Shown: positions 3,142 to 32,763, counted from the first letter of the stretch. The stretch is DNA of 64,000 bases from an uncultured virus (IMG/VR IMGVR_UViG_3300021399_000162) (IMGVR_UViG_3300021399_000162); one strand, 5' to 3'. Made by a program: numbers and translations. Notes: generated by a model from the letters alone, not told the origin.

Positions 3142-4881
3142 ATGCTATCGAACACAGCGATACCGATCTACTACGGCCAGTTTAGAGCCAGCGTAATGGC
3201 TGGTGAAATACCAATCTGTGAAACCATCGAGCTTGAGATGCATCGTATAGATGATCTGATTGCAGATCCGAAATACTACTACGATGACAAAGCTATTGAT
3301 GGTTTTATTGCGTTCTGTGAAGAGGAAATGACCCTCACAGACGGCGCCGATCTACATCTTCTTCCAACATTCAAACTTTGGGCCGAGAGCATCTTTGCCT
3401 GGTTCTACTTCGAGGAACAAGACGTACCAGTTCCAATGCCAAATGGCGATGTTTCGTACGTTAAACGATTCATCAAGCGAAGACTCTGCAATGAGCTTTA
3501 CTTGATCATTCCTCGAAGTGCTGCAAAGACACTGTTTGCTACTCTTATTCAAGCCTACTTCCTGGTCGTTGATACCACTTCGACCCACCAGGTTGCTGTG
3601 GCATATACAACAGACCAGGCTGATGAAACGCTTTCCCCGTTCCGAGTAGCTATTACTAGGGCTAAAGGACCGCTCTTCAAGTTCCTTACTGAAGGAAACC
3701 TCCACAACACAACCGGTAGCAAGGCTAATCGCCCGAAACTGTATTCCAGTAAGCGTGGAATTGAGATGTCTCTAACAAATAGCTACATCGAAACGATTCC
3801 TATGCGTATTGACCGGCTTCAGTCCATCCGAACCAAGATCATCACGATCGACGAATGGCTCAGTTGTGACGTTAGAGACAATGTTCTTCAGGCAGCTCGC
3901 CAAAGTTGCGCTAAAACTCCTGACAGTTTGATCGTTGCGATCAGCTCCGAGGGTACTGTTCGAAACGCAATTGGCGATGACATCAAAATGGACCTGCTTA
4001 AAGTGCTTCATGGAGACATCCAGGCGCCTTACAGACGGATCTGGTATTACAAACTTGACAGTGAGAAGGAAGTTGGCCATCCGGAACTGTGGATTAAGGC
4101 CAATCCTAATCTCGGAGCAACGGTAACATACGAAACTTACCAGCGAGACGTTGAGATTGCTGAGAAATCGCCTTCCGCACGAAACGATATTCTTGCTAAG
4201 CGATTCAATCTCCCGATGGAAGGCTTCACATACTTCTTCACCTACGAAGAAACTCTGCGTCATATGCCCAAATCGTACTGGAAGATGTCCTGCTCGATGG
4301 GTTGTGACCTTAGTTTGGGTGACGACTTCTGTGCATTTACATTCTTGTTCCCTCTGGGCAATGGTGCATTCGGTGTTAAGACTCGAGACTATATTTCTCA
4401 GCTTACATTTGATCGACTCAGCCCGGCAATGAGCGTTAAATACATGGAATTCATCAACGAAGGCAGTCTTATGGTTATGCCCGGTACAGTTCTCGACATG
4501 ATGACTGTGTACGCAGACCTAGACAACTTCATAGTTGAGCAGGAATACACGGTAGAATGTGTTGGCTACGACCCATACAATGCTAAAGACTTCGTGGCCC
4601 GTTGGGAAAGTGAAAACGGGCCTTTTGGTATTGAGAAAGTTATTCAAGGTGCCAAAACCGAGTCAGTACCTCTTGGCGAACTCAAGAAACTGGCTGGTGA
4701 AAGATTGCTTCTCTTTGACGAATCCCTTATGGAATTTGCAATGGGTAACTGTATGGTGAGCGTCGACACCAACGGTAACAGAAAGCTGATCAAAAAGCGC
4801 GCAGATCAGAAGATTGATGCTGTCGCTGCACTTATGGATGCTTATGTTGCCTATAAACTGAATCGAGACGCATTTGAGTGA
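3142..4881 (+). CDS. terL: Terminase large subunit
   Basis: 579 aa; variant Walker A (IPRSAAKT), Walker B (TIDEW), nuclease motifs GCDLS..DD, YDPYN, KIDAVAALMDA. Confidence 0.92.
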   Translation: MLSNTAIPIYYGQFRASVMAGEIPICETIELEMHRIDDLIADPKYYYDDKAIDGFIAFCEEEMTLTDGADLHLLPTFKLWAESIFAWFYFEEQDVPVPMPNGDVSYVKRFIKRRLCNELYLIIPRSAAKTLFATLIQAYFLVVDTTSTHQVAVAYTTDQADETLSPFRVAITRAKGPLFKFLTEGNLHNTTGSKANRPKLYSSKRGIEMSLTNSYIETIPMRIDRLQSIRTKIITIDEWLSCDVRDNVLQAARQSCAKTPDSLIVAISSEGTVRNAIGDDIKMDLLKVLHGDIQAPYRRIWYYKLDSEKEVGHPELWIKANPNLGATVTYETYQRDVEIAEKSPSARNDILAKRFNLPMEGFTYFFTYEETLRHMPKSYWKMSCSMGCDLSLGDDFCAFTFLFPLGNGAFGVKTRDYISQLTFDRLSPAMSVKYMEFINEGSLMVMPGTVLDMMTVYADLDNFIVEQEYTVECVGYDPYNAKDFVARWESENGPFGIEKVIQGAKTESVPLGELKKLAGERLLLFDESLMEFAMGNCMVSVDTNGNRKLIKKRADQKIDAVAALMDAYVAYKLNRDAFE

Positions 4882-4892
4882 GGAGATTGCCT

Positions 4893-6140
4893 ATGAGCTT
4901 TCTAGATAGAGTCCGGCATGCCTGGAACGTGTTCAATAATAAGGACCCCACGATACCCTACACTCAAGTAGGCATCGGTTATGGCGCCAGACCGGACAGA
5001 ATGCGATTTACCCGAGGTAATGATCGGACCATTAGAACTTCTGTTTGCAACAAGATTGCAATTGACGTGGCTCGCAATAGGATCATCCACGCTAAGACAG
5101 ATGAAGATGGCCGATACACAGGTGTTGTTCAGTCTGGATTGCACAATTGTCTTACACTGTCTGCCAATATAGATCAGACTGGTCGTGCATTCATTCAAGA
5201 CGCTGTTCAGAGTATGCTCGATGAAGGCTGTGTCGCACTTGTCCCCATCGACACAGACGACGAACCGAAAGACTCTAAGAACTTTAAGATCTATACCATT
5301 CGAACTGGACGCATTGTGCGCTGGTATCCGAATGCGGTCAAGGTCAGTGTTTACAATGAGCGTCTTGGTGAACATCAGGAGATCACGGTTCCAAAAGAGA
5401 CAACTGCTATTGTTGAGAATCCGATGTACGCCGTGATGAACGAGCCGAGCAGTACAATGTCCCGACTCTCAAGGAAACTGAGTCTTCTAGACGCGGTTGA
5501 CGAGAGTGCCAGCAGCGGAAGATTGGATATGATCGTCCAGCTCCCGTACGTTATCAAGACCGAGGCAAGACGCCAGCAGGCCGAACTACGACGCAACGAC
5601 ATTGAACGGCAGTTGAGTGAAGGAAAATATGGTATCGCCTATACAGACGGCACCGAACGAATTACTCAGCTTAACCGACCGGTTGAAAACAATCTCATGA
5701 AGACAATCGAATACCTGACGAACCTCCTGTTTAGCCAGATGGGTATAACACAGGGGGTTCTTGACGGTTCTGCAGATGAACGAACCATGCAGAACTACAG
5801 GATTCGAATTATCGAGCCTATTCTCGCAGCCCTTACAGATGAAATGTCTCGTAAGTTCCTCACAGAAGAAGCTCGTAAAGATGATCATCAGACGATCATG
5901 TTCTTCACTGATCCGTTGAAGATGGTCACGACTAGCGAATTGGCTGATCTGTCTGACAAGCTCATTCGTGGTGAGATTGCTACCAGTAACGAAATCAGAC
6001 AGGCGATCGGAATGCTTCCTAGCAAGGATCCTAATGCCGACATTCTTAGGAATAAGAATCTGAGTGAGCCGACTGGAACCGAGCAACCACACGTTCCGAC
6101 AAATGGACTGACAGATTTTTCTAGCAGTCAGGAGGAGTAA
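4893..6140 (+). CDS. Portal protein
   Basis: About 415 aa between TerL and the protease; HK97-type features including T.NEIR..IG near the C-terminus. Confidence 0.88.
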   Translation: MSFLDRVRHAWNVFNNKDPTIPYTQVGIGYGARPDRMRFTRGNDRTIRTSVCNKIAIDVARNRIIHAKTDEDGRYTGVVQSGLHNCLTLSANIDQTGRAFIQDAVQSMLDEGCVALVPIDTDDEPKDSKNFKIYTIRTGRIVRWYPNAVKVSVYNERLGEHQEITVPKETTAIVENPMYAVMNEPSSTMSRLSRKLSLLDAVDESASSGRLDMIVQLPYVIKTEARRQQAELRRNDIERQLSEGKYGIAYTDGTERITQLNRPVENNLMKTIEYLTNLLFSQMGITQGVLDGSADERTMQNYRIRIIEPILAALTDEMSRKFLTEEARKDDHQTIMFFTDPLKMVTTSELADLSDKLIRGEIATSNEIRQAIGMLPSKDPNADILRNKNLSEPTGTEQPHVPTNGLTDFSSSQEE

Positions 6141-6145
6141 TCAAA

Positions 6146-7978
6146 ATGAAAGACTACGATTTCTGTGGTTACGCCACAAGGAACAACATTCGTTGCTCTG
6201 ACGGCCGTACCATCATGAAAAATGCGTTCGCAGACGACGATGGAAAGCGTGTTCCTCTTGTCTGGAACCATCAGCATAACGATCCGACCAATGTTCTCGG
6301 CCATGCAGACCTTGAGAACCGAGAAGATGGTGTGTTCGCTTATGCCAAGTTTAATGACACTGAGAGCGGTCAGAACGCCAAGCAGCTTGTGATGCACGGT
6401 GATATTTCTGCTCTTAGCATTTTCGCAAACAAGCTTCAGGAGCAGTCTGGCAAAGTTATGCACGGCATTATCCGTGAGGTGAGCCTCGTTCTTGCTGGCG
6501 CTAATCCTGGCGCAACAATCGACTCTTTCGTCGCTCATAACGATGACGGTCAGATTGTTGAAGACAGAACTCAGGGTTGCTTCTATTCAGGCCTTGAGGG
6601 GGAACTTTATCATGCAGATGATTCGGACAAAAACGATGACGAGTCTAAGGATGACAAGGAACCTGCCGAAAAGACTGAAGGACGTACCGTTGAGGATGTC
6701 ATGAAAACATTTACCGATGAGCAGAAGATTGTAATTAAAGCTCTGCTCGAGTCCGCTATCCAGAAAGACAGCGACGATGAAGAGTCATCCGACAACGATG
6801 ACGACGATGATGAGGAGGAATCCGAAATGAAGCATAATGCCTTCGACAACGAAACTACCCCTGAAGAAAACTACATCAGCCATGCTGACGAAGTGGCGAT
6901 CGTGAAGAACGCAAAGAACCCTGCTATCGGCACCCTTAAGGGAGCTATCGCAGCCTACTGCGAAGAGAAGGGCCTGGAACACGGCTTTGACACCGCCAGC
7001 ACTACCTTCCTGCTTCCCGAATACAAGGATCTCAAGGGCGGCGCTCCTGAGATGCTCACCGACGATCAGGGCTGGATCTCTAAGGTTCTGCAGAAGGTTC
7101 ATAAGAGCCCGATGACCCGTATCCGCACTCGTTTCACCGACATCCGGAACATCGAGAACCTGCGTGCAAAGGGTTACAAGCAGAAGGGCGAACGGAAAGT
7201 CCTGACCGGGGACTATTCTGTGATCTATCGTACCACTGACGCTCAGACTGTGTACGTTCGTTCCAGCCTGCATCGTGATGATGTTCTGGACATCACCGAT
7301 TTCGACGTTGTGCAGTATCAGTACAACATCGATAAGATGATGCTCAATGAAGAACTGGCAACTGCTATCCTGCTCGGTGACGGCCGCGACGATGGCGACG
7401 AATTCCGCATTCATCCTGACAAGATCCGTCCTGTCTGGACCGATGATGAGCTCTATACAATTCATCGTACTGTTGACTTTGCTGCCATCAAGGAGCAGCT
7501 CCAGGGTGAAAACACCGGCGCTTACTTCGGCGAAGGCTTTGTCTATGCTGAAGCATTCATCCAGGAACTTCTGTATGGCCGTGAAGATGCCAAGAACCTT
7601 GGCCAGGGCGATCTGTACATCACTCCTCATGCTCTCAACCGCATGCTGCTCGCCCGCGACATGAACGGTCGTCGCATCTATGAGACTACTGAACAGCTCC
7701 GCTCTGCCCTGAATGTCGGCAGCATCATTACTGTCGAACAGTTCGAAGGCAAGCAGCGCTCTGTCACGGTTGAAGGCGCCACCAAGAAGAAGAATCTGCT
7801 TGGTATGGTTGTCAACCTGAACAACTATTACCTGGGCTGCAACAAGGGCGGCGAAATCACCCACTTCACCGACTTCGACATCAACTTCAACACCCTTGAG
7901 AGCCTGCTGGAAACCCGTTGCTCTGGTTCCAACACTCGTCCGTTCAGCGCTCTGGTGCTTGAAGAAGACGTTGCCTAA
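6146..7978 (+). CDS. Prohead protease-major capsid protein fusion (HK97-like)
   Basis: N-terminal protease (VPLVWNHQH, LSI, EVSLVLAGANPGA), acidic linker, then a capsid domain from MKHNAFD; strongly biased codons. Confidence 0.88.
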   Translation: MKDYDFCGYATRNNIRCSDGRTIMKNAFADDDGKRVPLVWNHQHNDPTNVLGHADLENREDGVFAYAKFNDTESGQNAKQLVMHGDISALSIFANKLQEQSGKVMHGIIREVSLVLAGANPGATIDSFVAHNDDGQIVEDRTQGCFYSGLEGELYHADDSDKNDDESKDDKEPAEKTEGRTVEDVMKTFTDEQKIVIKALLESAIQKDSDDEESSDNDDDDDEEESEMKHNAFDNETTPEENYISHADEVAIVKNAKNPAIGTLKGAIAAYCEEKGLEHGFDTASTTFLLPEYKDLKGGAPEMLTDDQGWISKVLQKVHKSPMTRIRTRFTDIRNIENLRAKGYKQKGERKVLTGDYSVIYRTTDAQTVYVRSSLHRDDVLDITDFDVVQYQYNIDKMMLNEELATAILLGDGRDDGDEFRIHPDKIRPVWTDDELYTIHRTVDFAAIKEQLQGENTGAYFGEGFVYAEAFIQELLYGREDAKNLGQGDLYITPHALNRMLLARDMNGRRIYETTEQLRSALNVGSIITVEQFEGKQRSVTVEGATKKKNLLGMVVNLNNYYLGCNKGGEITHFTDFDINFNTLESLLETRCSGSNTRPFSALVLEEDVA

Positions 7979-7991
7979 GGAGTAATTCAAA

Positions 7992-8330
7992 ATGGCAAGG
8001 TTTTGTGGAAAAGTTGGCTACGTGATCAATAGCGAAGCCGACGGTCATCCTGGTGTATGGGGCTCTGTACAGGAGCCTGTCGAGCGTACCTATTACGGTG
8101 ACGTGAATCGAACCATACGCCGACTTGAACCCGGAGAAGGCATCAACGACAACGTTGTGGTTAACAACGAAATCAGTATTGTTGCAGACCCGTTTGCTCG
8201 AGACCATTTCTTTGCCATTCGATATGTGAAATGGATGGGGGTAGCTTGGAAAGTCTCCAATGTGGAGGTCCTCTACCCCCGTCTCGTTTTAACTCTCGGA
8301 GGTCGGTACAATGGGCGAACGGCGAATTGA
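7992..8330 (+). CDS. Head closure (stopper) protein
   Basis: 112-aa beta-rich ORF after the capsid gene; YVKWMGVAWKVSNVEV.YPRL. Confidence 0.65.
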   Translation: MARFCGKVGYVINSEADGHPGVWGSVQEPVERTYYGDVNRTIRRLEPGEGINDNVVVNNEISIVADPFARDHFFAIRYVKWMGVAWKVSNVEVLYPRLVLTLGGRYNGRTAN

Positions 8331-8700
8331 GTTTCACGAGTATCTCCTAAAGTTGCTTGCTGAACATGGGACGGTTGCCCAAACAAACACTGGATGGGTC
8401 TGGACTCCAATGTCTGACATTGGCTCAGATGATGGTCATCCGATCTATGTTTACAATCAACCTCCGGAATCACTCCAAATAAATTATCCCTGCCTCATCT
8501 ACGAGATGAAAAATATTAGAAAGACTCCAGCCGACAATAAGACTTACCTCAAGTTCTGGGCCTACAGGTTGATCTACATCACCTGGGCTCCTGACAGTTC
8601 GGCTATTGATTGGCTGGTTGACTTTCCCTGGTGTTCCTTTGATGGCAGCCCTTATGAGGCTGACAACCTGTATCACTATACCTATACGATCTATTATTGA
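8311..8700 (+). CDS. Tail terminator/completion protein
   Basis: VYNQPP...YPCLIY...ADN...Y.ADNLYH, immediately before the major tail gene. Confidence 0.65.
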   Translation: MGERRIEFHEYLLKLLAEHGTVAQTNTGWVWTPMSDIGSDDGHPIYVYNQPPESLQINYPCLIYEMKNIRKTPADNKTYLKFWAYRLIYITWAPDSSAIDWLVDFPWCSFDGSPYEADNLYHYTYTIYY

Positions 8701-8713
8701 GGAGGACATGCAT

Positions 8714-9361
8714 ATGTCTAAACTTACTTGGGACGATGTTGGTACCCACAAGTATGCTCTTGGTGTAAGCAAGGGCGTTGTCTACAAGTTTGACAAGACC
8801 AAGAACAAGTGGCTCGGTACCGCTTGGACTGGTCTTTCCAGCGTTTCCGAAACCCCTGATGGCGGTGACGCAAACGACCTGTATGCCGATAACATTCTTT
8901 ATGCCAGCATCCGTGGCACTGAGAAGCTCGGCGGCACCATCGAGTGCTATGACTATCCGGATGCTTTCGATTCCTGCATTGGCGAAACTGAACTGGTGCC
9001 CGGTATTACCGTCGGTCAGCAGATCAAGGAGCCGTTCTGCTTCTGCTATCGCTCTGAAGTTGGCGAATCCAGCGACCCGTATCATTCCTACAAGCTGCAT
9101 GTGATCTACAACTGCACTGCTGCTGCTTCTGAGCGCAGCTATGAGACCATCAACGACAGCCCTGACACCGAGCCGATGAGCTTTGACTATGACAGCGTTC
9201 CTGTTCCTGTCACTGGTCATAAGGCTACTTCCAGCCTCGAGATCGATCCGGCTAAGGTCGACTCTGCTAAGATGAAGCTCCTTGAAGATGCTCTTTATGG
9301 CACCGACACTGAGGAAGCTTATCTGCCGCTTCCCGACGACCTGCTTGATCTTATCAAGTAA
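8714..9361 (+). CDS. Major tail protein
   Basis: LTWD..G...Y..GVSKGV, AWTGL..VSE.P.GG, LYADN..Y, YKLHVIYN; RBS GAGGAGG; followed by a terminator. Confidence 0.85.
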   Translation: MSKLTWDDVGTHKYALGVSKGVVYKFDKTKNKWLGTAWTGLSSVSETPDGGDANDLYADNILYASIRGTEKLGGTIECYDYPDAFDSCIGETELVPGITVGQQIKEPFCFCYRSEVGESSDPYHSYKLHVIYNCTAAASERSYETINDSPDTEPMSFDYDSVPVPVTGHKATSSLEIDPAKVDSAKMKLLEDALYGTDTEEAYLPLPDDLLDLIK

Positions 9362-9365
9362 CCTT

Positions 9366-9408
9366 AAAGGGAGTGCTCATACAATCTTGGGCACTCCCTT
9401 TTCTTTTT
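9366..9408 (+). terminator. Intrinsic terminator after the major tail gene
   Basis: AAAGGGAGTGCTCA...TGGGCACTCCCTTT stem followed by a T-tract. Confidence 0.85.
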
Positions 9409-9430
9409 ACAGTATGAAAGGAGAAGAACT

Positions 9431-9886: not shown

Positions 9887-9905
9887 ATAATCGGAGGTGA
9901 CGACT

Positions 9906-10454
9906 GTGCTCCAGCTTCATATTAGTGGAACCGACGAGTCGGGTACAGTGTTGTTTGACGAGCAGGCCAACAAATTTATTACGGCCAAGAGCCGTACAAT
10001 TCAGCTTGAGCACAGTCTCATCTCCATAAGTAAATGGGAATCAAAATGGAAGACCCCTTTTATTGGCGCACAGCTTACACGCGATCAAACACTTGACTAT
10101 ATCCGATGTATGACTCTAACTCCGAATGTAGACGAGAACTTGTATGCTTGCATAGACGATGACAATGTCCGAACTGTACAGCAGTATATTGCTGACGAAA
10201 AGACAGCCACGTGGTTTCGTGAAGATAAGAACCAAAAAGAAGATCATAAGGTGTTAACCTCGGAGCGTATCTATTCATGGATGGTTGTCCTTAATATTCC
10301 ATTCGAATGCGAGAAATGGCACCTGTCAAGATTGATGATTCTAATTAGAGCTGTAAGTGAGCTCAATGCTCCGCCAAAGAAGCGCTCAAGAGCTGAATCC
10401 GCAGCGCATTACAGAGCACAGCACGCAGCTAGACGAAAACGACGTGGTAGGTGA
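9906..10454 (+). CDS. Second tail assembly chaperone-like protein
   Basis: GTG start after GGAGG; LEHSL.SISKWESKW and IPFECEKWHL.RL motifs. Confidence 0.6.
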   Translation: MLQLHISGTDESGTVLFDEQANKFITAKSRTIQLEHSLISISKWESKWKTPFIGAQLTRDQTLDYIRCMTLTPNVDENLYACIDDDNVRTVQQYIADEKTATWFREDKNQKEDHKVLTSERIYSWMVVLNIPFECEKWHLSRLMILIRAVSELNAPPKKRSRAESAAHYRAQHAARRKRRGR

Positions 10455-10851: not shown

Positions 10852-10852
10852 A

Positions 10853-13800: not shown

Positions 13801-16800
13801 TCAGCTGTTTACGTATCTTAAGGCATCCATGATCAGCTTCGGGACCAAGCTCCCAGGCTATCTGGCTAAAGCTAAAACGATCGTGACAACTGCGGCAACC
13901 ACTCTGTACGAAGTCTTCAAGCCAACAATTGATCTGCTGTTGACAAAGATTAAGACTAAGCTCAAGGAAGTAACAACGACTCTCTGGTCGTCAATTAAGA
14001 GCTTTGTCACCAATTTTGGAACAAATCTTCCGACATATATCGAGAATGCCAAGACGACAGTTAAAGCATTTATCGATATGCTAACAACTCTGGTTAAGTC
14101 TATCGCGACCAGTGAGTACTCAAACCTTAAATCTAAAATCAAGAGTCTTCTAAAGAGCCTCACGATCCTCAAGAAGCTTCCACAGCTCCTTAAGAAGTCT
14201 TTCGGTACTGAGAAAGCCAAAGTCATTTGGGAGTCTATGAAGGCTCTGTTTGATAATTTCACGGACAAACTTCCTGGATATATCGAACTGGCTAAGGCTA
14301 AGATCAAGTCTGTTCTCGGTAAAGGCTTGAATCTCGTCGAGACCATCATTGGCTGGCTCCTCGGTGGAATATCTAGCAGTGCTAAAGCTGAAGACGCTCC
14401 TGAGGAAATTGGCGAGATGATCACTCAGACTCTTACTTCAGAGGAAACACAGGCTCAGATTGAAGACGCTATTGTTGAAGCCATTGTTCCTGACGACGAC
14501 GGAACGACTATACTCGGCGCGATAAAGAATGCCTTTTCTGGCATATTCGAGAAGATCAAAACATTCTTTACCACTCTTACTACAACCACTCTGCCTGCCA
14601 TCAAAGAGAAATTCAATCAGATCAAAGATTTCTTTGCCGGTTTTGACTGGGAGAAAGCCTTTGGTAATGTTATGGATTTCCTCAAAATCTGGGCCAGTAT
14701 TAAGTGGGCTGGAAGCATCAGTAACATTGGCAAGGGTATCGGTAAGTTCGGTAAGGGAATGGGCACATTCTCAAAGAACTTTAAGTATTTCCAGGAAGGC
14801 TTGAGCGGCGTCGGCAATGGTATTGGTAGTATTGGCGCCGGCATTAAAGCTATCGGTGAAGGTTTCAAAGAGAAGGGCTTTAAAGGCATGTTCGATAACT
14901 TCATGACCTTTACAGATTCCTTTAATACCACAACAACTAACATCCAGAAAAACAAGAACATCACTCGAAACCTCTTCGGCTTTGGTGCTCAGTTACTGAT
15001 GATCGCTGGTGCCGTGTGGGTGATCGTTGATGCTCTGAACAAGCTTAAAGGTGTTAAGCTTGAAGAGGTCAAGGAACCTGCGATTATTATCGTGGGCATC
15101 ATCGGAACGCTATTGATCGCAGCAGGTCTTGCTAAGCTTTTCGCAGGCAATGGCTTTGCGTTTATTACGTTGGCAGGCGCTGTTGCAATCATCCTTTATG
15201 TCATGACCCAGCTTATGTCAATACAATGGGACAACATGGTTGACTCTGTATTTAAGCTTGTGGTCATAGCAGGCACTCTTGTCGCCGTAGCCCAAATGGC
15301 CAGTGGCGTACAGATTAAGGGCATGATCGGCCTATCAGTGGCTGTTGGTATACTTGCTGGCGTTGTCTATCTTCTCGGCAAGATGGATGAAGGCGTTGCA
15401 TGGTCTGGCATTAGTCGGCTTATTCCTATAATGTTCATGCTGAAGATGTTTGTTGCCTCTGCAGGCAAGAATAACTTCTCTGGTGTTAAGGGAATGGCCG
15501 GATTAGCTTTCTCCATCATGCTGCTTGTCATTCCAATCAAAATGCTGGGTAATATGGACACAGGAGCCGCTGTTCAGGGTGTTCTTGCCGTTGGCGCAAT
15601 ACTCTTGGCGCTCGGCATATTCCTGAATAAGACCAAAGATGTCGACAAGGCATCTAAGATTGCAGGTCTTGTTGGCTCCGTTGCCGCACTTGCACTGCTT
15701 GCAGTCATACTTGGTAACATGCCATTTGACAAAGCTTTGCAGGGCGTTGGCTCCATTGCAGCACTACTCTTCAGCATAAGCTATCTTGTTAAGCAAGTTG
15801 CAAAACTTAATGACAACCAGCTTAACAACGTTAGCAAGGTGTTTAAATCTATAGCTTTTGTCATCGCTATTGCAGCTGGTGCTATTGCTATACTCGGTTC
15901 TTTGAACATCGGATGGGAACTCGCTGGTGCGTTCTTTGGCGGTATGGCTATCATGGTTGCTGCCGTTGGTAAGGCACTGCCTGCGTTGTCGCAGCTAAGC
16001 CTCGGCAAAGCGCTTAAGGGTATTCTTATCTTGGGTCTGGCTGTTGCTGCTTTGTCTGCAGTGTTCTCTCTTGTAGCCCCGATGATCATGGATTCTATTG
16101 GTGAAGGCATTGCCCTCTTCTTCAAGAAATTGGGTGGTGCTGGATCTGATATCACCAAGTTCATCTCAGCATTTTCCAGTACAAGCGAAGGCTCAATTTC
16201 GGATGTCGGTTCGAAGATTAAGACTCTGTTCGAGATCGTCAAGACTCTTGGTGATTTCTCGAAGTACAGAGATTCCGTTAACTCTTTCCGCATCCAGCTT
16301 AACAACCTCCGTGCAGCATTGATGCTATTCATGAACAATGAGTCTTCTATTGGCTCATTTGCTGGTTCCAATATCCAAGGTTTACTGGTCAGTCTTCGTG
16401 ATTTACTGCCAAGCCTTGCAACCATAAAACTCGGCAATCTGCCGAATAAGATCGCACTTCTTGGTTCTGGTATATCACTGTTCTACCAGACTACTGCCGA
16501 TGTCGGATCTCCTGATGACAGCAATGCTCTCAAATTTATTGAGCGCTTGTTCCAGCAGGCCGGCAATATTGAAACTCTTTCCAAACTTCCGCTTAACAGT
16601 ATGTCTGACAAGATGAGTAAATTGGGAGGTGCTATCTCCATTTACGCTACTTCTGCTTCACAGCTCGGTGGCGTTGAGGTTGCTGCTGATCCAAAGACAA
16701 TCGAAACTGGTGTCAGTATGCTTGAAGCTGTCTGCGCTGCTATTTCTGGCGAGGACGGCAACGGCGGATTCAAAATACCCGAAAATATGCCTGAAGAAGG

Positions 16801-18747: not shown

Positions 18748-21700
18748 ATGGCTATAGTTGAAATCTACATCAAAAATTTCAAAATGGGTGGCTCCGTCAT
18801 AACGACGTCCACCCTTTTGCAGTCTGTTCCTTTGACTCTGTCAGATACGAATCTTATCGAGCCAAAGGTTAAGACTGAAATGGGCAAAGCTCCTTCTTTG
18901 GAGTTCGCTATGGATGTAGATCATCCATACTATGATGCCCTTATGCAAATGAAAACGCTCATGCGCGTTACCTTTGCTGGAATTACTATATTCCGAGGGC
19001 GCGTGTTGACTATCGATGTTGACATGATGGGGCGCAAAGCTGTTCACTGTGAAGGTGATTTTGCGTTCCTCATGGATACACCTCAGGACGGCACTGAAGA
19101 AAAGAACCGAGCAGCTATTTCCCTTGAGACATATCTTCAGCAGCTTATCGATAAACACAATTCCATGTGCGGTGATGATGACCATAAGTTTATCCTAGGC
19201 GAATACCCGGGCCATTATTCTTCTGGCATCACATATGAACAGCAGATTATTCCGGCAGCTGAACAAGCTGTTCAGAAGTTTGGAAACTCTAGCTGGAACA
19301 CCACCATGGATCGTTTCGAGGATGTTCTGAACACATTCGGCGGTTATTGGCAAACTCGATACGTCGATGAATCACATGTTTATCTTGACTGGCTTGACTT
19401 ATATTTCAAGCCTTATGACGAATCTCGACAGCGCATCGAAGTAGCCAATAACCTTATCGAGTTTGGAGGTTCAAACGAACTCGACAACATATTCACTGCA
19501 GTTATTCCAATTGGCAAGCAGGACAATAAGGAATTATTCCTGACCGACTACTGGTACTCCATTGCACCTGGTCATGCTGCAGTAAACTATATTCTTGTTC
19601 CAGAAATCGTATCACTTGGTATCTTCACAGATGCGGAGCTTAGTAAGGGCTACCACACCAAAGAAGACTATGCAAATGCCATCAACAATTTTGGCATGAT
19701 CTACAAATCTGTCACGTTTGAAAATGCCGACAATTGCGATAAGCTGTTTTCTTATGCGACGGACTGGATCAAGAACAATTTTCTTGGCTCAGTGACATCA
19801 TATGATATCACTGCCCTAGACATTTCAAACATTGATCCCGAAACTTCACCACTTGTTGTTGGTGACGAAGTCAAGGTGGTTCACCCTGCTATTGGCGAGA
19901 GAACCTTGACAATTATCTCGATCGATTACGACTTATATAACCCATGGAAAACAAAGTATAAGATCGGATCTCCGAACAACCTTCTCAATGCCACTTATGG
20001 CGTGGCCAAAAAGAAGTCTGGCGGTAAGAAGTCAGACGGTCCTTCATCTAGTGGCGGTGGAGGAGGCGGTGGATACGAAGAACCAACTCAGCAACAGCTT
20101 GATAAACAGCATGCTGACAGTGAATACATCAAGAAGACAGAATTCGGTAAGGACATCCAAATGGATGAACCGCTATCGTTTCTTTTCCATGATGATCACG
20201 GAAATAAAGTCGACGCCAAAGATTTAAAGAGTAAGTTTAAGGGAAAACCCCAGCTACTACGTGAATTCACGAAGGTGCTTAAAGATCCTGCATTCGCTAA
20301 TGATCCGGAATTTGTTATTCAATCTGGATTGTATCCGAATCTTAAAGAAGAACAACAGAAGTGGCGACGGAATGTTGAGACATACCTCGTTGATGAATGC
20401 GGTGTTGATCGTGACAAGGCTGAGATTATTACCAACAGCCGAGCTGGTACAACATGGCTTGCCAACATTATCGACGATCAGGGTCATCTGAAGCCACCGT
20501 GGTGTTTTAAACAAAATGCTGACAAGCTTGCTGATATGGCTTTGAGAACGAGAAAGGCGCTAAATGGTACGCTTGATAACGAAACTGCCGCACCTCTATT
20601 CGGTGTTCATGGAATGCAGTTTGCTGAGAATCTCCTTGGTGTTGATCTCGATCTTGATGGCGGTAATTTTGTTTATGACTCTGAAAATCAACTCTTCGAC
20701 TTCGGTAACGGAAAAGTCAAAATGGACGCTACTGGCAAAACAGTAGAGTTCGACGACATGCAAGTTATCCGAAAAGAAGTAGGGCCTACTGGTGAAACTC
20801 GTAGCTTTGGCTTCTACGATGAAGGAAACCTCACCGCAGGTGTCATGGTCGAGAAGCTTAGTAATGGCGTAACCAAAACTAAGATATCATCTGACTGGAT
20901 CGACTTAGATAGCGATCAGACGATCATCAAAGTCAAGAACTTCATAGGTAACGTTACCGGTGTCTCTGAAGACAACTGGGATTCCTATAAAGGAATAACT
21001 CTTAAGCAAATCGATGCTTCGGCTGTCTGGCAAAACCGTGATGACATCACCAATGTTGTTGGCGAGTTTGAAATCGTCGGCACCGGTGATAATAGGCACG
21101 TTGTCATCAAATCTGGTGGCGGTATGCGCATCAGGAAAAACGGTGTGGAATATGGCCTCTACGATGAGGACAACTTAACTGCAGGTTTGATGGTCGACAA
21201 GATCAATGGTGATGAGACAGTCGCCAAGATTAAAGCTTCGAGAGTTGATCTTGGCGCTTATGCTACTGTTGGACGGCTAGAGGCTGTTGAAGCAAAAATT
21301 GACGACCTGATGGCAGGTCGAATTCAGGCTTCTGTTATCTCAGCAAGTAAGATTATTGCCGGAAAGCTTGTAACCACAGACACTCCAAGTGGTCAAGACG
21401 TTCCAGTGAGTGTCGATGCTGATTGGCACAATTTCACTGTCGATGGTAAGAAACTCGCTTCGTTTCTTGGAACGGCGGACATAAATTTTAATATCGCCGA
21501 TACCGATACTTACAAAGCGGCTATCGGCGTTAAATCAATTTATTTGACTGATGACAGTACTCCCCCGAGTTACTCCAATGGATACCTTTCAGTTCCTGTT
21601 TCGGCTATGCCAAATGCCGGTGGTGAAGCTAGAGCGACACTCTCGGTCGATGCGTCCAATGCGTACAGTTCTGGCTATAGCAATGGCTACAGCAAAGGCA

Positions 21701-22385: not shown

Positions 22386-22416
22386 TTCAAAATGACCGAG
22401 ACAGGAGGCAGTTGCT

Positions 22417-23206: not shown

Positions 23207-23626
23207 ATGCCCGAGATTCAGGGCCTCACGCCACAAGTGTTATGGGTTACGATTTATGGCATTGTCGGTATCTGTGTTCTGTTCATGGTTATGTATAAAG
23301 TGTATGACGCCATTCGCAATGAAATCGAACGAAGGCGACGTGCCAGGGAAGCAAGGGAACCTGATTTGGCAGAACGCGTAAGTAAGAAAGTTCTTGAGAA
23401 CCTCGAACCGAGATTCCAAGACATCGAGCAGAAACTTAGTAAGGACCATGCTCGATTAGACAATCACGAGAAACTCATTGCAACGAACCAACAGTCACAG
23501 CTGGACACAAAGGAAGGACTAGTGGCGATCTGTAAAGCGCTTCTCGTAATAACTTCTCAAAATGGCGGGGATCAGTTTAAGGAAGCTCATGAAGAGCTGA
23601 CTAAATTCCTTGCCGGACGGCTGTAA
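23207..23626 (+). CDS. Single-TM coiled-coil membrane protein (lysis accessory?)
   Basis: One hydrophobic helix then a coiled coil; directly upstream of the holin. Confidence 0.5.
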   Translation: MPEIQGLTPQVLWVTIYGIVGICVLFMVMYKVYDAIRNEIERRRRAREAREPDLAERVSKKVLENLEPRFQDIEQKLSKDHARLDNHEKLIATNQQSQLDTKEGLVAICKALLVITSQNGGDQFKEAHEELTKFLAGRL

Positions 23627-23943: not shown

Positions 23944-24681
23944 ATGATTGTAGCAGCAGATCTTGTTGCAAAGTTTCAGTATGCTCTGGATAATCACTGG
24001 GGGTACATCGCAGGTGGTGCTGGACAGCTTTGGACTGAAACCAAACAGAAAGCAGCCACCAATGAGATGACAAAGAAATACGGTGCCAAATGGGTCGGAC
24101 ATCATGTCGCTGATTGTTCCGGCCTTTTCACTTGGGCATTTAAGGAACTTGGCGGGTATATGTATCATGGGTCTAATACCATGTTTCGTAAGTACTGCAC
24201 CAAGGTTGGCGAGATCTCTTCTGGCGATATTATCGAGCCTGGCACTGCTGTATTCAAGCGCAAGGTTGATAAGACTCGTTCCGATGGCTGGGATTATTAC
24301 CATGTCGGACTTTATATCGGAAATGGTGAAGTGATCGAGGCTCAGGGCACTCGCACCGGCGTTGTCAAGTCCAAGCTTAACACTTGGCATTGTTACGGCT
24401 ATCTTAAAGGCGTTACCTATAGTGGTCTGGCAGAACAGACAGCACCAGCAATTCAAAATGAGGTGGTTCCAATGGTGACTAATGGTAAGGCAATTGTTGA
24501 TGTACCTGACGATACTTCTGTGAACGTTCGCAGTAAGCCCACCAAGGCTTCAAAGGTTCTCATGAAGATCAATGAAGGCGCCGATGTTGACGTGGTCGAG
24601 AATGATGGAACTTGGGCAAAGGTTGAAATCAAGAGCTATGGCTACATTATGAGCAAGTATCTGGTAGAGCCTAAGAAGTAA
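23944..24681 (+). CDS. Endolysin: NlpC/P60 peptidase plus SH3 domain
   Basis: DCSGLF...HVGLYIGNG.VIEA catalytic motifs; VNVRSKP...W..V...GYIMSKYL SH3b. Confidence 0.85.
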   Translation: MIVAADLVAKFQYALDNHWGYIAGGAGQLWTETKQKAATNEMTKKYGAKWVGHHVADCSGLFTWAFKELGGYMYHGSNTMFRKYCTKVGEISSGDIIEPGTAVFKRKVDKTRSDGWDYYHVGLYIGNGEVIEAQGTRTGVVKSKLNTWHCYGYLKGVTYSGLAEQTAPAIQNEVVPMVTNGKAIVDVPDDTSVNVRSKPTKASKVLMKINEGADVDVVENDGTWAKVEIKSYGYIMSKYLVEPKK

Positions 24682-25058: not shown

Positions 25059-25604
25059 ATGGCTAACTATCCTGGGTACAATCCTACTTATCCTAATGCT
25101 GGTCAGGTCGGTCAGGGTTATCCGAGTAATCAAATCTCTGGTTCATACGGCGGTTCATATGGTGGCTCGGCGTATCCTCAGATGCAGCAAATGTCTCAAA
25201 TGCCACAGACAATGTCTATGGAGCAGCAGAAGCAGATTAATCCTGCCATGACCTGGGTTGATGGTGAATTCGCTGCACGAGCCTTCACTGTTCCCGTAAC
25301 GCAGCCTCTTGGCCAGCCGTATCCGATTTGGGACAGTGACTGCATGCATGTCTACTTTAAGACCCTTGATCAGTTTGGACGTCCGACCATGCGCCGTGCT
25401 CGGTATATGTTTGATGATGAACCTCAGCAGACACTTCCACAGGGCATGTCTGAGACCGCTGCTCCGAATATGGACATGAGCGGTTTTGTTACCAAGTCGG
25501 ACTTTGACTCTTTCAAGAATGAACTTCGGGAAATGCTTAATCGAGACAACAAAAACTTTCAAAATGGCGTAAACAAGAATAAGGGAGGTAACCAGAATGT
25601 TTAA
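25059..25604 (+). CDS. Q/P/Y-rich hypothetical protein
   Basis: Low-complexity N-terminus, then WVDGE..AR...WDSD...YFKTLD..GRP; RBS GGAGG. Confidence 0.7.
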   Translation: MANYPGYNPTYPNAGQVGQGYPSNQISGSYGGSYGGSAYPQMQQMSQMPQTMSMEQQKQINPAMTWVDGEFAARAFTVPVTQPLGQPYPIWDSDCMHVYFKTLDQFGRPTMRRARYMFDDEPQQTLPQGMSETAAPNMDMSGFVTKSDFDSFKNELREMLNRDNKNFQNGVNKNKGGNQNV

Positions 25605-26703: not shown

Positions 26704-26718
26704 TAAAGGAGTGATTCT

Positions 26719-27177
26719 ATGGCTATTGATCAGGACATTGCAGCTATTCGGCAAGCGATGTATGGCAAAGACGTTCGCGAAGCTATAGCACATGGTATTG
26801 AGCAGTGCTATTCAGACGTCACAACTAGTAAAACCTCAGCCGAAGATGCGACAGCCAATGCAACCCAAGCTGCATCTTCAGCTAACACAGCAGCCGCTAA
26901 TGCTAATCAGAAAGCACAGGCGGCTGATACTGCAGCTACTAATGCCAACCAGAAAGCACAGGCAGCTGATACAGCAGCTAAGACTATTGACACTAAAGTT
27001 GAAACGAAGGTTTCCGAAAGTGTCGGCAGTATCGTCCTTGTTCAGGACACCCAGCCTACCGAGGAAGATAATAAAATCTGGATAAAACCAGAAAGCGAAG
27101 AATACAAAGTACCTACCTGGGAAGAATTTCAGGAACTCTCCGCTAAGGTGGATGAGCTTATGCAGAAAGTTAATTAA
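26719..27177 (+). CDS. Minor tail/fibre protein with alanine-rich coiled coil
   Basis: A.YGKDVREAI N-terminus; tandem NANQKAQAADTAA repeat. Confidence 0.6.
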   Translation: MAIDQDIAAIRQAMYGKDVREAIAHGIEQCYSDVTTSKTSAEDATANATQAASSANTAAANANQKAQAADTAATNANQKAQAADTAAKTIDTKVETKVSESVGSIVLVQDTQPTEEDNKIWIKPESEEYKVPTWEEFQELSAKVDELMQKVN

Positions 27178-27197
27178 TCCACAAAGCTGGTGATAAA

Positions 27198-28067
27198 ATG
27201 AATACGATTTATGCGAATGACGTAGGTCTGATTAAGCTTGGCTACCAGTCCGAGAATAATCGTACCGAAGTTATATTTGACGTATCAGATCTTGCAACAG
27301 AATTCCCGGATGGAATGGTTTCTGTTGTGGTCAGACGCCCGACGGATAGCGCTGGTCATCTTGTCACCAGCATTACTCAAAATGGCAGCATTGTCACATG
27401 GCTTGTGAATGATTATGAGCTGGAGTTCAAAGGTCTTGGTGAGCTCCAGCTAATTTACACTGTCCCAGGAGTCGTGGCAAAGACTAAAATCTGGAGTATT
27501 TCAACCGATCGTAGCTTGACTTTTACAGACAGTATTCCTCCCGATTGGAGAGATATTGCTAACTCGTTGCTTGATGCGGCTAGTGAGTTACACGGCGTCA
27601 CTGAGCAGATTAAGACATGGCGAGACGAAACTGTGTCTGCAAAAGAAGCAACTGTGTCTGCAAAAGAAGCAACTGAGAGTTACCGAGACGAAACCAAAAT
27701 CCTGCATGACAGTACGTCAGAGAAAGCAGAGCAGGCTTCATCGGATGCTAGGACTGCTGCAGCTGCTAGAACAGGTATGGTCGAATTATATGATTCGACA
27801 AAGATTTACGCAGACCAAGCTGAATCTGCAGCAAGCCAGGTCGCACTCGATAAGAATCAAATCGAAATTTGGCATAGGGAAACAAAACAGTACCGCGATG
27901 AAGCTGAGCACTTTGCAGATCTTGCTGAGCAGTGTGCGGCGATCGCTGGTTACATGGATATGGAAATTGTGGATGGTCATCTGATTTATCGAAGAACGGA
28001 GAATGTCGATGTCAGCTTTTTACTTCAAAATGGTCGCTTAATTCGTGGAGGTGATGCAAATGGCTGA
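27198..28067 (+). CDS. BppU-like baseplate/fibre adaptor
   Basis: LGYQSEN..T...FD, G.GELQL..KT N-terminal domain followed by a coiled coil. Confidence 0.55.
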   Translation: MNTIYANDVGLIKLGYQSENNRTEVIFDVSDLATEFPDGMVSVVVRRPTDSAGHLVTSITQNGSIVTWLVNDYELEFKGLGELQLIYTVPGVVAKTKIWSISTDRSLTFTDSIPPDWRDIANSLLDAASELHGVTEQIKTWRDETVSAKEATVSAKEATESYRDETKILHDSTSEKAEQASSDARTAAAARTGMVELYDSTKIYADQAESAASQVALDKNQIEIWHRETKQYRDEAEHFADLAEQCAAIAGYMDMEIVDGHLIYRRTENVDVSFLLQNGRLIRGGDANG

Positions 28068-30219: not shown

Positions 30220-30347
30220 AAATCAAACTGAAAGCCCCGGAAGGATATCTGTATTACGACACATTGGCCGACCGTTATCACTCTGAAGTCATCACGACAG
30301 ACCGGAAGAGGTTCGTCCTCGTCCCGGCATCACAGAAGGGAGAATGA
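30216..30347 (+). CDS. Small hypothetical protein (43 aa, not in ORF track)
   Basis: ATGA overlap with the fibre stop, RBS GGAGG; MKIKLKAPEGYLYYD... Confidence 0.5.
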   Translation: MKIKLKAPEGYLYYDTLADRYHSEVITTDRKRFVLVPASQKGE

Positions 30348-30350
30348 GTT

Positions 30351-30605
30351 ATGGAACTGAAAGATACGGTTGCATTGATGACCAGTTTGGACTGGAAAGA
30401 CCGTTTTCTGGCAGAATACCTGCAAACCAAAATCCGCTATGAAAAACTTCATAGGCTGATCGTAAAACGAGAAGTCGGCAAACACGGATTTGATACTCCG
30501 ATTCCATTTGAAAGTTGGAAAGAGCAGGCGCACCACATGGGCCTGTATCTGTACGAACTGGAAAAGCAGGCGGCCATTCATGGCATTGAACTGCCCCAGG
30601 TGTAA
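30351..30605 (+). CDS. Phage hypothetical protein
   Basis: 84 aa; MELKDTV..M.S.D.KDRF.AEY.Q.KIR..KL. Confidence 0.65.
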   Translation: MELKDTVALMTSLDWKDRFLAEYLQTKIRYEKLHRLIVKREVGKHGFDTPIPFESWKEQAHHMGLYLYELEKQAAIHGIELPQV

Positions 30606-30618
30606 GGAGGTTTGAATC

Positions 30619-30831
30619 ATGCTTTACTACGCAGTTAACTACAACATCAAAGCAGACGGCACATCCGGGCATGTCGAGAAATTTGGCACGGAGACAGATA
30701 TGCTTTACCAGTACTATCTCATGTGCGCAAATTCCGCCAAGAACACCGATGGCGACTTGTTCGATTCTGTTGAGTTTGGCACGATCGAAGGCGGCAAGCT
30801 CAAGCGTGAAGTGTTTGATCGCAGGGGGTAA
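30619..30831 (+). CDS. Hypothetical protein
   Basis: 70 aa; RBS AAGGAGG. Confidence 0.6.
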   Translation: MLYYAVNYNIKADGTSGHVEKFGTETDMLYQYYLMCANSAKNTDGDLFDSVEFGTIEGGKLKREVFDRRG

Positions 30832-30838
30832 TCCGACA

Positions 30839-31081
30839 ATGAATGAAAGAGCTATTCAGCTTGTACTGAACTACGTTGCTGAACATCTTGACAAATCCGA
30901 TCCGGAGCCGGACTTTGATGTTTTTATTGTCTGGAAGTGCAAGGTGCTGCAGAACTGGAAGTATCTGATCAGCACAACTCTGTTTGATGGGATGTATTAC
31001 GAACTGACCTTCAACGGAGACAAGAAGGAATGGTATCTCGACGCCTATAAGAAGTTCGAGAACAAGATTATTCCTGATTAA
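30839..31081 (+). CDS. DUF6275-like phage protein
   Basis: VFIVW.CK.LQNWK.LIST...DGMYYELT.NGDK.E.YLDAYKKFEN; family name recalled, not searched. Confidence 0.6.
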   Translation: MNERAIQLVLNYVAEHLDKSDPEPDFDVFIVWKCKVLQNWKYLISTTLFDGMYYELTFNGDKKEWYLDAYKKFENKIIPD

Positions 31082-31159
31082 ATAACATTTTAATGGAGGT
31101 GGTGTTATGCAGGAAGCGATTGATGCGTTTAACCGTATGAATTCCGTTCCTCAGTAACT

Positions 31160-31257
31160 GTATCTGTGGCGAAATAGGTAGACGCTTGCCGTAGGCTCTG
31201 GAAAGAATTGGACGGCTAACGCAGAGCTATGTTGGGTGCAAATCCTAACCAGATATT
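31160..31257 (+). ncRNA. tRNA-like element without a canonical anticodon arm
   Basis: Acceptor GTATCTG/CAGATAT, Leu-like D arm GCGAAATAGGTAGACGC, T arm GTTGGG-TGCAAAT-CCTAAC; atypical 45-nt middle; no CCA. Confidence 0.6.
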
Positions 31258-31284
31258 GTTTCATAAATTAACACATCACACTCG

Positions 31285-31377
31285 ATTAAAACCCCACTCA
31301 GAGATATTTTGGTGCCTATATGGACTGGCACGATGCATAACCGCACAAATAGCGGGATCTCTGAGTGGGGTTTTAAT
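31285..31377. repeat. 21-bp perfect inverted repeat enclosing two small hairpins
   Basis: ATTAAAACCCCACTCAGAGAT / ATCTCTGAGTGGGGTTTTAAT; inner GTGCC/GGCAC and CCGC/GCGG. Confidence 0.85.
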
Positions 31378-31474
31378 ATACTTCAAAATGGAAGGACTGA
31401 TTCCATTGCAGAGGTAAAGCTTTATTCGGTTTCCCCTGGTATCCAAAATACTACGTGAAGGAGTCTAATAGACT

Positions 31475-32293
31475 ATGTACGAAAATGGAAACATGTCTCC
31501 TGCTGATATGGCAGCAGTCGTTGGCAACAACAATGATGGTTTCGGTTTTGGCGGCAATGGTGCTTGGTGGATCTTCATTCTTTTCTTGTTCGCCATGAAT
31601 AATGGCTGGGGAAATGGCTTCGGTGGTAACGGTGCAGGTGCCGGTATGCAGCGTGGATTTGATCAGCAGGCTGTCATGAGTGGTATTGGTGATATCTCCG
31701 GTGCAATCGGTAACGGCTTTGCTAACGTCCAGACTGCCCTCTGCAATGGTTTCGCTGGCGTGAATGCCGGTATGGCAAATGGCTTTGCACAGGCAGAGAT
31801 TGCAAACAACGGTCGCCAAATGGCGAACATGAATCAGCTCTTTGGCATCCAGACTGGTCTTGGAAATCAGCTTAATTCTATTTCTATGGGTCTCCAGAAT
31901 TACTGTTGCGAGAACCGTGCAGCTACGGCCGACCTGAAGTACACGGTTGCTACTGAGTCTGCTGAAACTCGTAACAATTGCAATGCCAATAACCAGAAGA
32001 TCCTGGATAAGCTCTGCCAGATGGAAATGGATACCATGCGTCAGAACTATGAAGGTCAGCTTCGTACAATGCAGACCCAGTTGGATGCCGCTCGCACAGA
32101 GATTCAGGGCCTTAAGGATAGTGTTGCTCGCACAGCTGATCGTGCCGCTATCATTGCCAATAATGAAGCTCAGACGAATGCTCTCGAGCGTTACCTCGCT
32201 CCCAATCCGATTCCTGCCTATCCTGTGCAGAACCCGAATTGCTGCCCGAATCAGGGATATGGTTGGGGTGGCTGTTGGGGCAGGGCAGCCTAA
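31475..32293 (+). CDS. Gly/Asn-rich membrane-anchored coiled-coil protein of unknown function
   Basis: GFGGNGAWWIFILFLF hydrophobic segment, GFA repeats, CCENR motif, heptad coiled coil, Cys/Gly tail. Confidence 0.75.
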   Translation: MYENGNMSPADMAAVVGNNNDGFGFGGNGAWWIFILFLFAMNNGWGNGFGGNGAGAGMQRGFDQQAVMSGIGDISGAIGNGFANVQTALCNGFAGVNAGMANGFAQAEIANNGRQMANMNQLFGIQTGLGNQLNSISMGLQNYCCENRAATADLKYTVATESAETRNNCNANNQKILDKLCQMEMDTMRQNYEGQLRTMQTQLDAARTEIQGLKDSVARTADRAAIIANNEAQTNALERYLAPNPIPAYPVQNPNCCPNQGYGWGGCWGRAA

Positions 32294-32319
32294 GTTGGGA
32301 TCGAAGGAGTTGATGTACT

Positions 32320-32763
32320 ATGACCCAGTTCGGTTATGTTGAGGCTCAGACCCTGCAGAATGGTCAGGCCGCAATCCTTCAAAATGTACGCCCCTGCACA
32401 TCGTGTCCTCAGCTTGTACTTCATGAGAACCTTACTCCCAACATCAATCTTCGTGGCATTACCCGTACACCCTGCTCCGAAGCACTGTACCGGGTCAGCT
32501 TCAGTACGAACATTGCCGTTCCTGAGGGAGGCACTGCTGGCGAGATCCAGGTAGCCTTCTTTGTAGATGGTGCTGTTCGTCCGCTGACTATCGCGGCAGC
32601 AACTCCTGCAGCTGCTGGCGAGTTTTGGCATGTGAGCGGTGAAGACGTTATCGGTGTGCCTATGGGATGCTGCCCGGTTGTGTACGTGGCCAATGCTTCA
32701 GCTACAGCAGACACTCCGGTTGTCTTGCGCAATCTGCAGGTGTTTGTTGATAAAGTTGGATAA
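32320..32763 (+). CDS. Beta-sandwich hypothetical protein (possibly BclA-CTD/C1q-like)
   Basis: QTL..GQ...L, LRG, YRVSF..NIAVP.GGT.GEI pattern. Confidence 0.55.
   Translation: MTQFGYVEAQTLQNGQAAILQNVRPCTSCPQLVLHENLTPNINLRGITRTPCSEALYRVSFSTNIAVPEGGTAGEIQVAFFVDGAVRPLTIAAATPAAAGEFWHVSGEDVIGVPMGCCPVVYVANASATADTPVVLRNLQVFVDKVG

Follow-up and report, generated by a model that had tools for sequence, protein, structure and literature searches.

The genome of an uncultured gut virus (IMG/VR IMGVR_UViG_3300021399_000162), studied here as a window of 64,000 nucleotides (nt), raises the question of why one eight-letter word, TCAAAATG, recurs at roughly one copy per 2 kb on the coding strand of its particle-building genes. 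The complete genome is 65,840 bases long with ends overlapping by about 200 bases, and its called genes lie on the + strand: head, tail and lysis genes at 0.3-33 kb (the late, or structural, arm), followed by integrase, primase-polymerase, helicase, ThyX and exonuclease genes. An exact search of the window placed 15 copies of the octamer on the + strand, spanning 3983-32386. Comparison across the phage family suggests a reading that we consider about evenly poised between right and wrong: the word, with the G that often follows it (TCAAAATG(G)), may be a late promoter core read by a phage-encoded single-chain two-barrel RNA polymerase.

An octamer confined to one strand of the late arm

The octamer is the top enriched 8-mer in the left half of the window. 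Under an order-3 Markov model, 1.13 copies are expected at 1-33,500; 2000 synonymous-codon shuffles of this left arm, with proteins and codon usage fixed, gave a mean of 1.49 and a maximum of 6, versus the 15 observed. From position 32,387 on, the + strand has no further copy, the final 1,840 bases of the 65,840-base genome, beyond the window, included (1.14 expected for the right arm by synonymous-codon shuffle), and the single antisense copy is at chance level (0.75 expected). Over the whole window and both strands, 16 copies compare with a mean of 4.76 in dinucleotide shuffles, none of 100 of which reached 16. Two near-matches, TCAAAATC at 948 and TCAAAATT at 2424, were left out of the count. 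The copies are as follows.

3983..3990, + strand: inside the gene for the terminase large subunit, read in codons ATC AAA ATG; kept in 18/26 family terminase genes, about 4 being expected from codon usage
6141..6148, + strand: start codon of the protease-capsid gene (0 nt), with a Shine-Dalgarno sequence upstream
7987..7994, + strand: start codon of the 7992 gene (0 nt), which encodes a 112-amino-acid (aa) DUF7253 protein
10041..10048, + strand: within the 9897-10454 gene, as codons TCA AAA TGG
15537..15544, + strand: within the tape measure gene; the next start is 3.2 kb away
18779..18786, + strand: 12 codons inside a 1132-aa tail gene
20717..20724, + strand: second copy within the 1132-aa tail gene
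22387..22394, + strand: intergenic, followed by a Shine-Dalgarno sequence and the Dit start (25 nt)
23557..23564, + strand: 79 nt upstream of the holin start
24453..24460, + strand: within the NlpC/P60-SH3 gene
25559..25566, + strand: 33 nt upstream of the small 25597 gene, with a Shine-Dalgarno sequence in between
27377..27384, + strand: within the 27198-28067 gene
28025..28032, + strand: 30 nt upstream of a fibre-like gene, with a Shine-Dalgarno sequence in between
31383..31390, + strand: intergenic, 87 nt upstream of the 31475 gene
32379..32386, + strand: final copy, within the 32320 gene
36991-36998, - strand: single antisense copy

A first-pass annotation of this DNA had listed the same 15 + strand coordinates, every one of them exact, and its estimate of roughly one copy by chance in 33 kb agrees with both models above; the codon-preserving shuffle that it had named as a check left the enrichment standing. 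Its remark that 34-64 kb held none is correct for the + strand and overlooked the antisense copy. The next base is, as it had stated, mostly G or A (13/15; G 10, A 3, C 1 and T 1). Likewise, many copies do lie at or shortly before gene starts, even inside coding sequence: seven are 0-87 nt ahead of a start codon, and the remaining eight are intragenic, the next start being about 220-3,400 nt away. Just upstream of the 31383 copy, an inverted repeat (AAAACCCCACTCAGAGAT ... ATCTCTGAGTGGGGTTTTAAT) occupies 31295-31372. The first gene of the genome (309-671) matched only unnamed look-alikes.

The same word in the late arms of related phages

A terminase search returned 251 records at E 1e-60, the bulk of them from phages of Arthrobacter, Gordonia, Streptomyces and Lactococcus and from the Faecalibacterium phage Oengus. 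Identity to the 60 best matches was 63-65%, and core genes were present in 21/21 complete relatives. Judged by its shared genes (terminase, protease-capsid fusion, primase-polymerase and putative RNA polymerase), the phage is a member of the 1706/Oengus/BI-DJ-AU-AM supercluster. In each of the 28 family genomes under study the octamer is a mark of the structural arm, and in 26/26 records searched it occurs 4-18 times on one strand and 0-2 times on the other.

When the late core was defined as the left end to 10 kb beyond the tape measure start, the late cores of 28 genomes (690 kb) held 203 sense octamers and one antisense, and the early regions of 23 genomes (599 kb) held nine and six, respectively; the genomes being related, these pooled counts, and those that follow, are not independent. 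After removal of the two closest relatives, late cores of 26 genomes had 183 sense copies versus 25.7 expected and one antisense copy versus 9.1, while early arms had nine versus 16.8 (a mild sense avoidance) and six versus 10.7. Among 53 IMG/VR capsid loci, 282 sense and 3 antisense octamers were counted, with at least one copy in 52/53, and two loci from GTDB genomes had five and four sense copies and no antisense copy. The seven control phages, including SPbeta, had 0-9 octamers per strand, and six of them (four in part) stood at Markov expectation.

The family's hosts span Bacillota and Actinomycetota at 34-60% GC while the octamer is invariant, which points to a phage-encoded reader. One contig of the family (L177) is filed in a Methanosphaera metagenome bin, where it is probably misbinned.

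Anatomy, selection and placement of the octamer

In 227 dereplicated sites, conservation is limited to the eight letters, a G in the next position (69%) and, immediately upstream, a weak A/T bias; there is no -35 or other upstream partner element. None of 24 one-letter variants tested rose above 2.0-fold enrichment; all eight letters matter. Silent positions within the octamer are identical in 19/19, 21/21 and 5/8 codons relative to the relatives G001, G002 and G003, versus nearby codon identities of 0.64, 0.63 and 0.42, respectively, and the intragenic octamers are under purifying selection. The tape measure copy at 15537 persists in G001 and G003, where local identity is 61-70%, its final base being altered in G002, and high-GC phages retain rare codons at octamer sites (in Camille, AAA makes up 9% of lysine codons). 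The G after the word follows intragenic copies in two frames in 34/47 and 45/73 cases, versus 34% and 24%.

A set of 276 copies, located with a simple gene caller that misplaces some starts, comprised 66 start-codon, 47 intergenic and 163 intragenic copies, the last distributed over all three frames (55, 84 and 24). Of 270 copies, 24.4% supply a start codon (3.8% of other ATGs do so) and 12.5% lie 10-49 nt ahead of one (3.1% for other ATGs), so that placement ahead of genes is 4- to 6-fold enriched, with no octamer 1-12 nt ahead of a start. Where the octamer is 13-49 nt ahead of a gene, the Shine-Dalgarno sequence is positioned downstream of the word; any transcript start would thus be at or before the G. 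The octamer ATG is the capsid start codon in 20/26 genomes (18 exact, and two where the homology-based start agrees). Internal copies are scarce in genes of high-copy proteins (four over 52 kb of capsid genes and none over 20 kb of major tail genes) relative to terminase, portal and tape measure genes (0.24-0.37 per kb). The variation of octamer gaps is below the random mean in 21/24 genomes, partly because sites coincide with gene starts. No other conserved word was found in the late arm.

No conserved hairpin was found around octamers (220 sites versus 248 controls in 10 windows; smallest p 0.02, uncorrected), and a hairpin-type RNA element or intrinsic terminator is unsupported, no structure being conserved around the sites.

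Right-arm promoter-like elements and a predicted RNA polymerase

Two further features of the right part of the genome are of relevance here.

33817-61442, + strand: 13 copies of a promoter-like element, CGCGA-N13-TATTATG-purine, at 33817, 34190, 34417, 36862, 37537, 39043, 40081, 41284, 41754, 43217, 52516, 52917 and 61418, the first 1.4 kb past the last octamer
62423-65434, + strand: predicted single-chain two-barrel RNA polymerase of 1003 aa, with a DFDGD motif and helix-turn-helix (HTH) domains at both ends; the window holds its 5′ part to 64000

The octamer and the right-arm class each keep to one arm of the genome, and A-x-x-ATG-purine is the ending of both. Most relatives have related right-arm forms (one pattern gave 116 matches over 26 genomes, six of which had none), with variants in 1706 and P078; the right-arm class varies between phages while the octamer is invariant. 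Either class can have a Shine-Dalgarno sequence directly behind it, so neither is an ordinary -10 box. Scans for host-type promoters gave 17 versus 21.1 and 25 versus 28.1 in shuffles, without excess.

Two paralogous structured RNAs, at 33841-33930 and 34214-34300, have closing helices that begin at the end of a right-arm promoter. In both sequences the helix starts at the T or G of the promoter ATG, by which the transcription start (+1) is not fixed. A non-coding stretch at 60550-60900, in which repeated CTGCCCACCC / GGTGGCCA words flank an AT-rich core, is a candidate replication origin.

The polymerase gene is present in 21/21 complete relatives, about 250 phage-collection records carry the enzyme, and about 8,000 homologues were among the candidates scored (a common gut and rumen phage group); D561, D563, G564 and D565 are invariant in 97 homologues. 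The structural model (predicted local distance difference test, 83.5) matches the folds of QDE-1 (E 2.7e-8), RDR2 and Thermus phage gp64 (E 3.3e-6) and gp62, although whole-chain template-modelling scores are low (0.23-0.27). On this model, the enzyme is a predicted single-chain two-barrel RNA polymerase of the YonO, QDE-1 and gp64 kind. A search of its sequence against solved structures gave HTH matches only, and a plasmid search gave no homologue. Sigma-70 region 2 (PF04542) had no match in the genome, which a very divergent sigma would escape.

Directly behind the polymerase, wherever called, is encoded an 88-aa protein (phrog_4303; 65434-65700, beyond the window) that is present in 21/21 complete relatives; its confident model had no fold match at E 0.001, and it is a candidate accessory factor. 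The polymerase N-terminus (62423-62600) has an H-x-G...G-x-x-W-G stretch like the HYGVKGMKWG of small late-arm proteins, which are encoded, for example, at 8981-10717 in Gravy and 4879-6832 in Madamato. Given this stretch and the label 'structural protein' on the 1706 polymerase gene (orf75), a capsid-loading signal may be present.

Metatranscriptome contigs around the octamers

RNA data came as metatranscriptome contigs from six runs, four compared with 1-20,000 and four with 22,000-35,000; their depth is mostly 2-7, and such contigs cannot show starts, ends or strand. After partial matches from other organisms were dropped, 14 clean pieces were listed for 22,000-35,000, of which three stop 2, 4 and 13 nt behind an octamer (post hoc P, 0.0003-0.002), a weak hint at low depth. 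One piece begins 8 nt behind an octamer and one bridges an octamer. For 1-20,000, none of the 28 clean pieces among the matches listed touches any of the six octamer sites. One contig starts at 33853, 12 nt behind the G (33841) of a right-arm promoter, and no loose poly(A) ends are present among the contig matches listed. A 271-base stretch with a crAss001_48-like gene (30347-30619) is missing in a relative from RNA run X3.

A late promoter core and its alternatives

The promoter-core reading is put forward because an invariant word across two phyla needs a phage reader, and also because no other conserved late word exists, placement is gene-proximal and antisense copies are few. The phage polymerase would read the octamer directly and start RNA between the A-run and the final G, and serial octamers with few terminators would yield overlapping late transcripts stacked along 30 kb. 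A start in the A-run would produce leaderless or near-leaderless mRNA where translation begins at the ATG of the word (capsid and DUF7253 genes), and a gene start 13-49 nt behind the octamer would leave a short leader with a Shine-Dalgarno sequence. This polymerase would also serve the bipartite CGCR...TATWATG right-arm promoters early, the 88-aa protein being at most a candidate for the early-to-late switch. By analogy with vaccinia (below), the capsid placement would fit a +1 in the A-run better than a +1 at the G. The first-pass annotation had proposed a late-specific signal complementary to the right-arm motif, and specificity for the late arm stands; late promoter is, on comparative evidence, the best-supported function.

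Several observations weigh against promoter function. Besides the relatedness of the pooled genomes, these concern where the copies lie: about 60% (163/276) are intragenic and 52/270 are over 1 kb from any start, four genes left of 3983 precede the first octamer, the gene after a strong hairpin at 9366-9401 has none before it, and terminator-like hairpins are not enriched ahead of the word (12/182 versus 35/650). L012 has no octamer in 12.8 kb, G014 has only five with none at capsid or terminase, Oengus has five past its integrase gene and Qui several right of its tail genes. Antisense avoidance is also seen for 5/24 one-letter variants, and the SPbeta late arm is not enriched (6 versus 3.05 expected). 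Octamer-started genes have upstream Shine-Dalgarno sequences as others do (44/48 versus 410/447) and would thus be translatable from upstream messages, while with +1 at the G their own copy would yield a message without start codon; the right-arm ATG, unlike that of the octamer, is never a start codon (0/116). The 'structural protein' label of the 1706 enzyme suits early rather than late transcription, and YonO serves one promoter and one operon, in contrast to the many octamers here.

It is unlikely, though to be taken seriously, that the octamer instead controls elongation, with read-through of the late genes that begins at the final right-arm promoter and crosses the joined genome ends, and the word acting as a pause, stop or factor-loading site that would silence late genes early or keep the enzyme going late (stoperator-like or antitermination). 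Such a site would agree with the single orientation, even spacing, intragenic copies, start-codon overlap, intact upstream Shine-Dalgarno sequences and mild early-arm avoidance, as well as with the one long late operon of YonO (PMC5467207), the asymmetric, one-directional stoperators (PMC9934374) and, weakly and post hoc, the three of 14 listed contig pieces that stop just behind an octamer, which count against a promoter. However, no hairpin or U-run lies near the octamers, most family members are lytic with no repressor in the shared core gene set, the Shine-Dalgarno sequences and purines directly behind are start-like, and contigs bridge one octamer and begin behind another. A polar site at the DNA level, for lagging-strand priming (with either the primase-polymerase or the RNA polymerase as primase), packaging or ejection, is improbable: an exact 8-mer on a single strand at about 2-kb spacing in all three reading frames would suit it, a 1416-aa primase-polymerase fusion is encoded, and phage NrS-1 polymerase, with its 8-nt priming site, offers an analogue, yet the other arm has no mirror-image enrichment (antisense, 6 versus 10.7), there is no genome-wide spread, the start-codon and Shine-Dalgarno association is left unexplained, and ATATT, polar over most of the genome, is a better priming candidate. 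A primase recognition site as such is not supported, as the octamer occupies one arm only, without the mirror that would be expected if replication were bidirectional.

Slightly less probable again is an RNA-level site, at which a phage endoribonuclease or RNA-binding protein would act on UCAAAAUG in late mRNA to make gene-sized or leaderless messages and lower the low-copy proteins. Sense-strand restriction, the scarcity of internal copies in capsid and major tail genes relative to terminase, portal and tape measure genes and, weakly, the contig breaks near octamers speak for it; however, it leaves the antisense avoidance (1 versus 9.1) unexplained, even spacing alone also yields the gene-level pattern, and neither a conserved RNA structure nor a ribonuclease family among core genes was recognised. 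That CAAAAT is a -10 element of the host polymerase turned on by a phage activator, as with the T4 late phage sigma, is very unlikely. CAAAAT retains the second-place A and the sixth-place T of the -10 box (PMC7598289) and the 1706 polymerase may be a virion enzyme that acts early, but with a start some 7 nt past the box the Shine-Dalgarno sequence in the 13-16 nt class would be lost, upstream elements are lacking in the 227 sites, sigma-70 region 2 has no match in the genome and the word stays the same across two host phyla. A sigma-70/SigA promoter is likewise not supported, as there is no -35 or extended -10 at fixed spacing and the Shine-Dalgarno position conflicts. Least of all can the octamer be a by-product of codon usage and A-rich spacers ahead of ATG, the probability of which is negligible: 24% of copies are indeed start codons with an A-rich spacer and some encode conserved IKM or SKW, but codon shuffles (1.5 versus 15), the rare codons kept, the unenriched one-letter neighbours and the identity of silent positions within the word refute it.

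ATATT itself (no A before, mostly C or T after) is rich on the sense strand (131 versus 1 in Gravy, 89 versus 1 in Madamato), with GATATT at 73 on + versus 5 on - in the window. Its polarity is clearest in Gravy (L080-L082), Madamato (L091-L093), Camille, RosaAsantewaa and Count and is not seen in 1706, P078, MT835495, G010 and G014; it is denser in the right arm and in several genomes falls almost to zero across the polymerase gene. ATATT is a candidate primase or translocase site.

A bolder form of the promoter-core reading, which we find doubtful, is that one virion-packed 110-kDa polypeptide alone runs the whole programme, from an HTH-read bipartite early promoter to an eight-letter initiator with A-run starts like those of poxvirus polymerase and leaderless capsid mRNA; if true, enzyme and octamer would together be a minimal means of expression in Gram-positive bacteria that does not depend on the host. 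For promoter recognition by enzymes of the single-chain two-barrel class, the octamer supplies an exact candidate sequence, present in cultured phages (1706, P078 and clusters BI, DJ, AU, AM, AW and EL). As a promoter, it would offer a T7-like system for Bacillota and Actinomycetota; as a site of pausing, processing or priming, it would be even more unusual, given eight letters that do not vary between two phyla. No published description of the octamer was found, although the 1706 and Pepy6/Poco6 genome papers and the bioRxiv supplements could mention it, and the accessible parts of the literature on these phages, Oengus included, describe no DNA motif.

Comparison with known systems

The Actinobacteria-Firmicutes supercluster is the same phage group, and its named signature is the same protein, a putative RNA polymerase that has DxDGD and, at either end, HTH domains (bioRxiv 10.1101/842583); the main text of that source, as available, has neither the word 'promoter' nor a DNA motif. 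Stoperators of cluster A and MabJ mycobacteriophages are 13-14 bp long, mostly intergenic, repressor-tied and variable between phages (PMC9934374, in the part available). They are, like the octamer, asymmetric, in one orientation to transcription and numerous in one arm, whereas the octamer is invariant, mostly intragenic and found in lytic phages too; identity with stoperators was rejected, only 47/276 octamers being intergenic and the core set holding no repressor. Thermus phage P23-45 has two enzymes, gp96 and gp64, with two motifs, both early, its middle and late genes being served by the host polymerase (PMC10770324, in the part available). It shares single-chain two-barrel enzymes (gp64 being a fold match) and two motif classes that divide the genome, but has two enzyme genes where one was found here. 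YonO of SPbeta reads the late genes into a single transcript from one promoter, the sequence of which was left undetermined in the available text (PMC5467207). It too is a single-chain two-barrel enzyme of a Gram-positive siphovirus and serves structural and lysis genes, the number of promoters setting it apart as noted; the octamer is absent from the yonN-yonK interval of SPbeta, and the YonO start region (P_YonO) does not share the sequence, the late strand at 54,193-63,368 having no copy.

Vaccinia late TAAATG elements give 5′ poly(A) by slippage. The vaccinia initiator TAAA, at -1 to +3, is read by the polymerase core, and TAAAATG occurs in the G8R promoter (PMC12917281, in the part available). 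An A-run directly ahead of an ATG that may itself serve as start codon is in common with the octamer, as would be reading by a two-barrel polymerase core; vaccinia is, in contrast, a eukaryotic virus with a multisubunit enzyme that needs an upstream core element and factors, and no homology is implied. The T4 late promoter, TATAAATA, is used by the host core with gp55, gp33 and the clamp, with a start several bases downstream. It is likewise an eight-letter, single-element word with many copies over the late region, but depends on a phage sigma-family subunit, for which the region 2 search gave no counterpart here. In phiKZ, the late promoter is 5′-TATG-3′ with +1 at the G, read by a non-virion multisubunit RNA polymerase (PMC4666361 and PMC7598289, in the parts available). 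Both are short words ending in ATG in which each letter is required, without -35, at late genes and with a phage two-barrel polymerase; the phiKZ word has four letters, is insufficient alone and is read by a five-subunit jumbo-phage enzyme, versus eight to nine letters and a predicted single-chain reader here. As with promoters of the phiKZ kind, the octamer is confined to late genes, on the sense strand and strict in sequence, and by this analogy it would work like a single-element phage late promoter.

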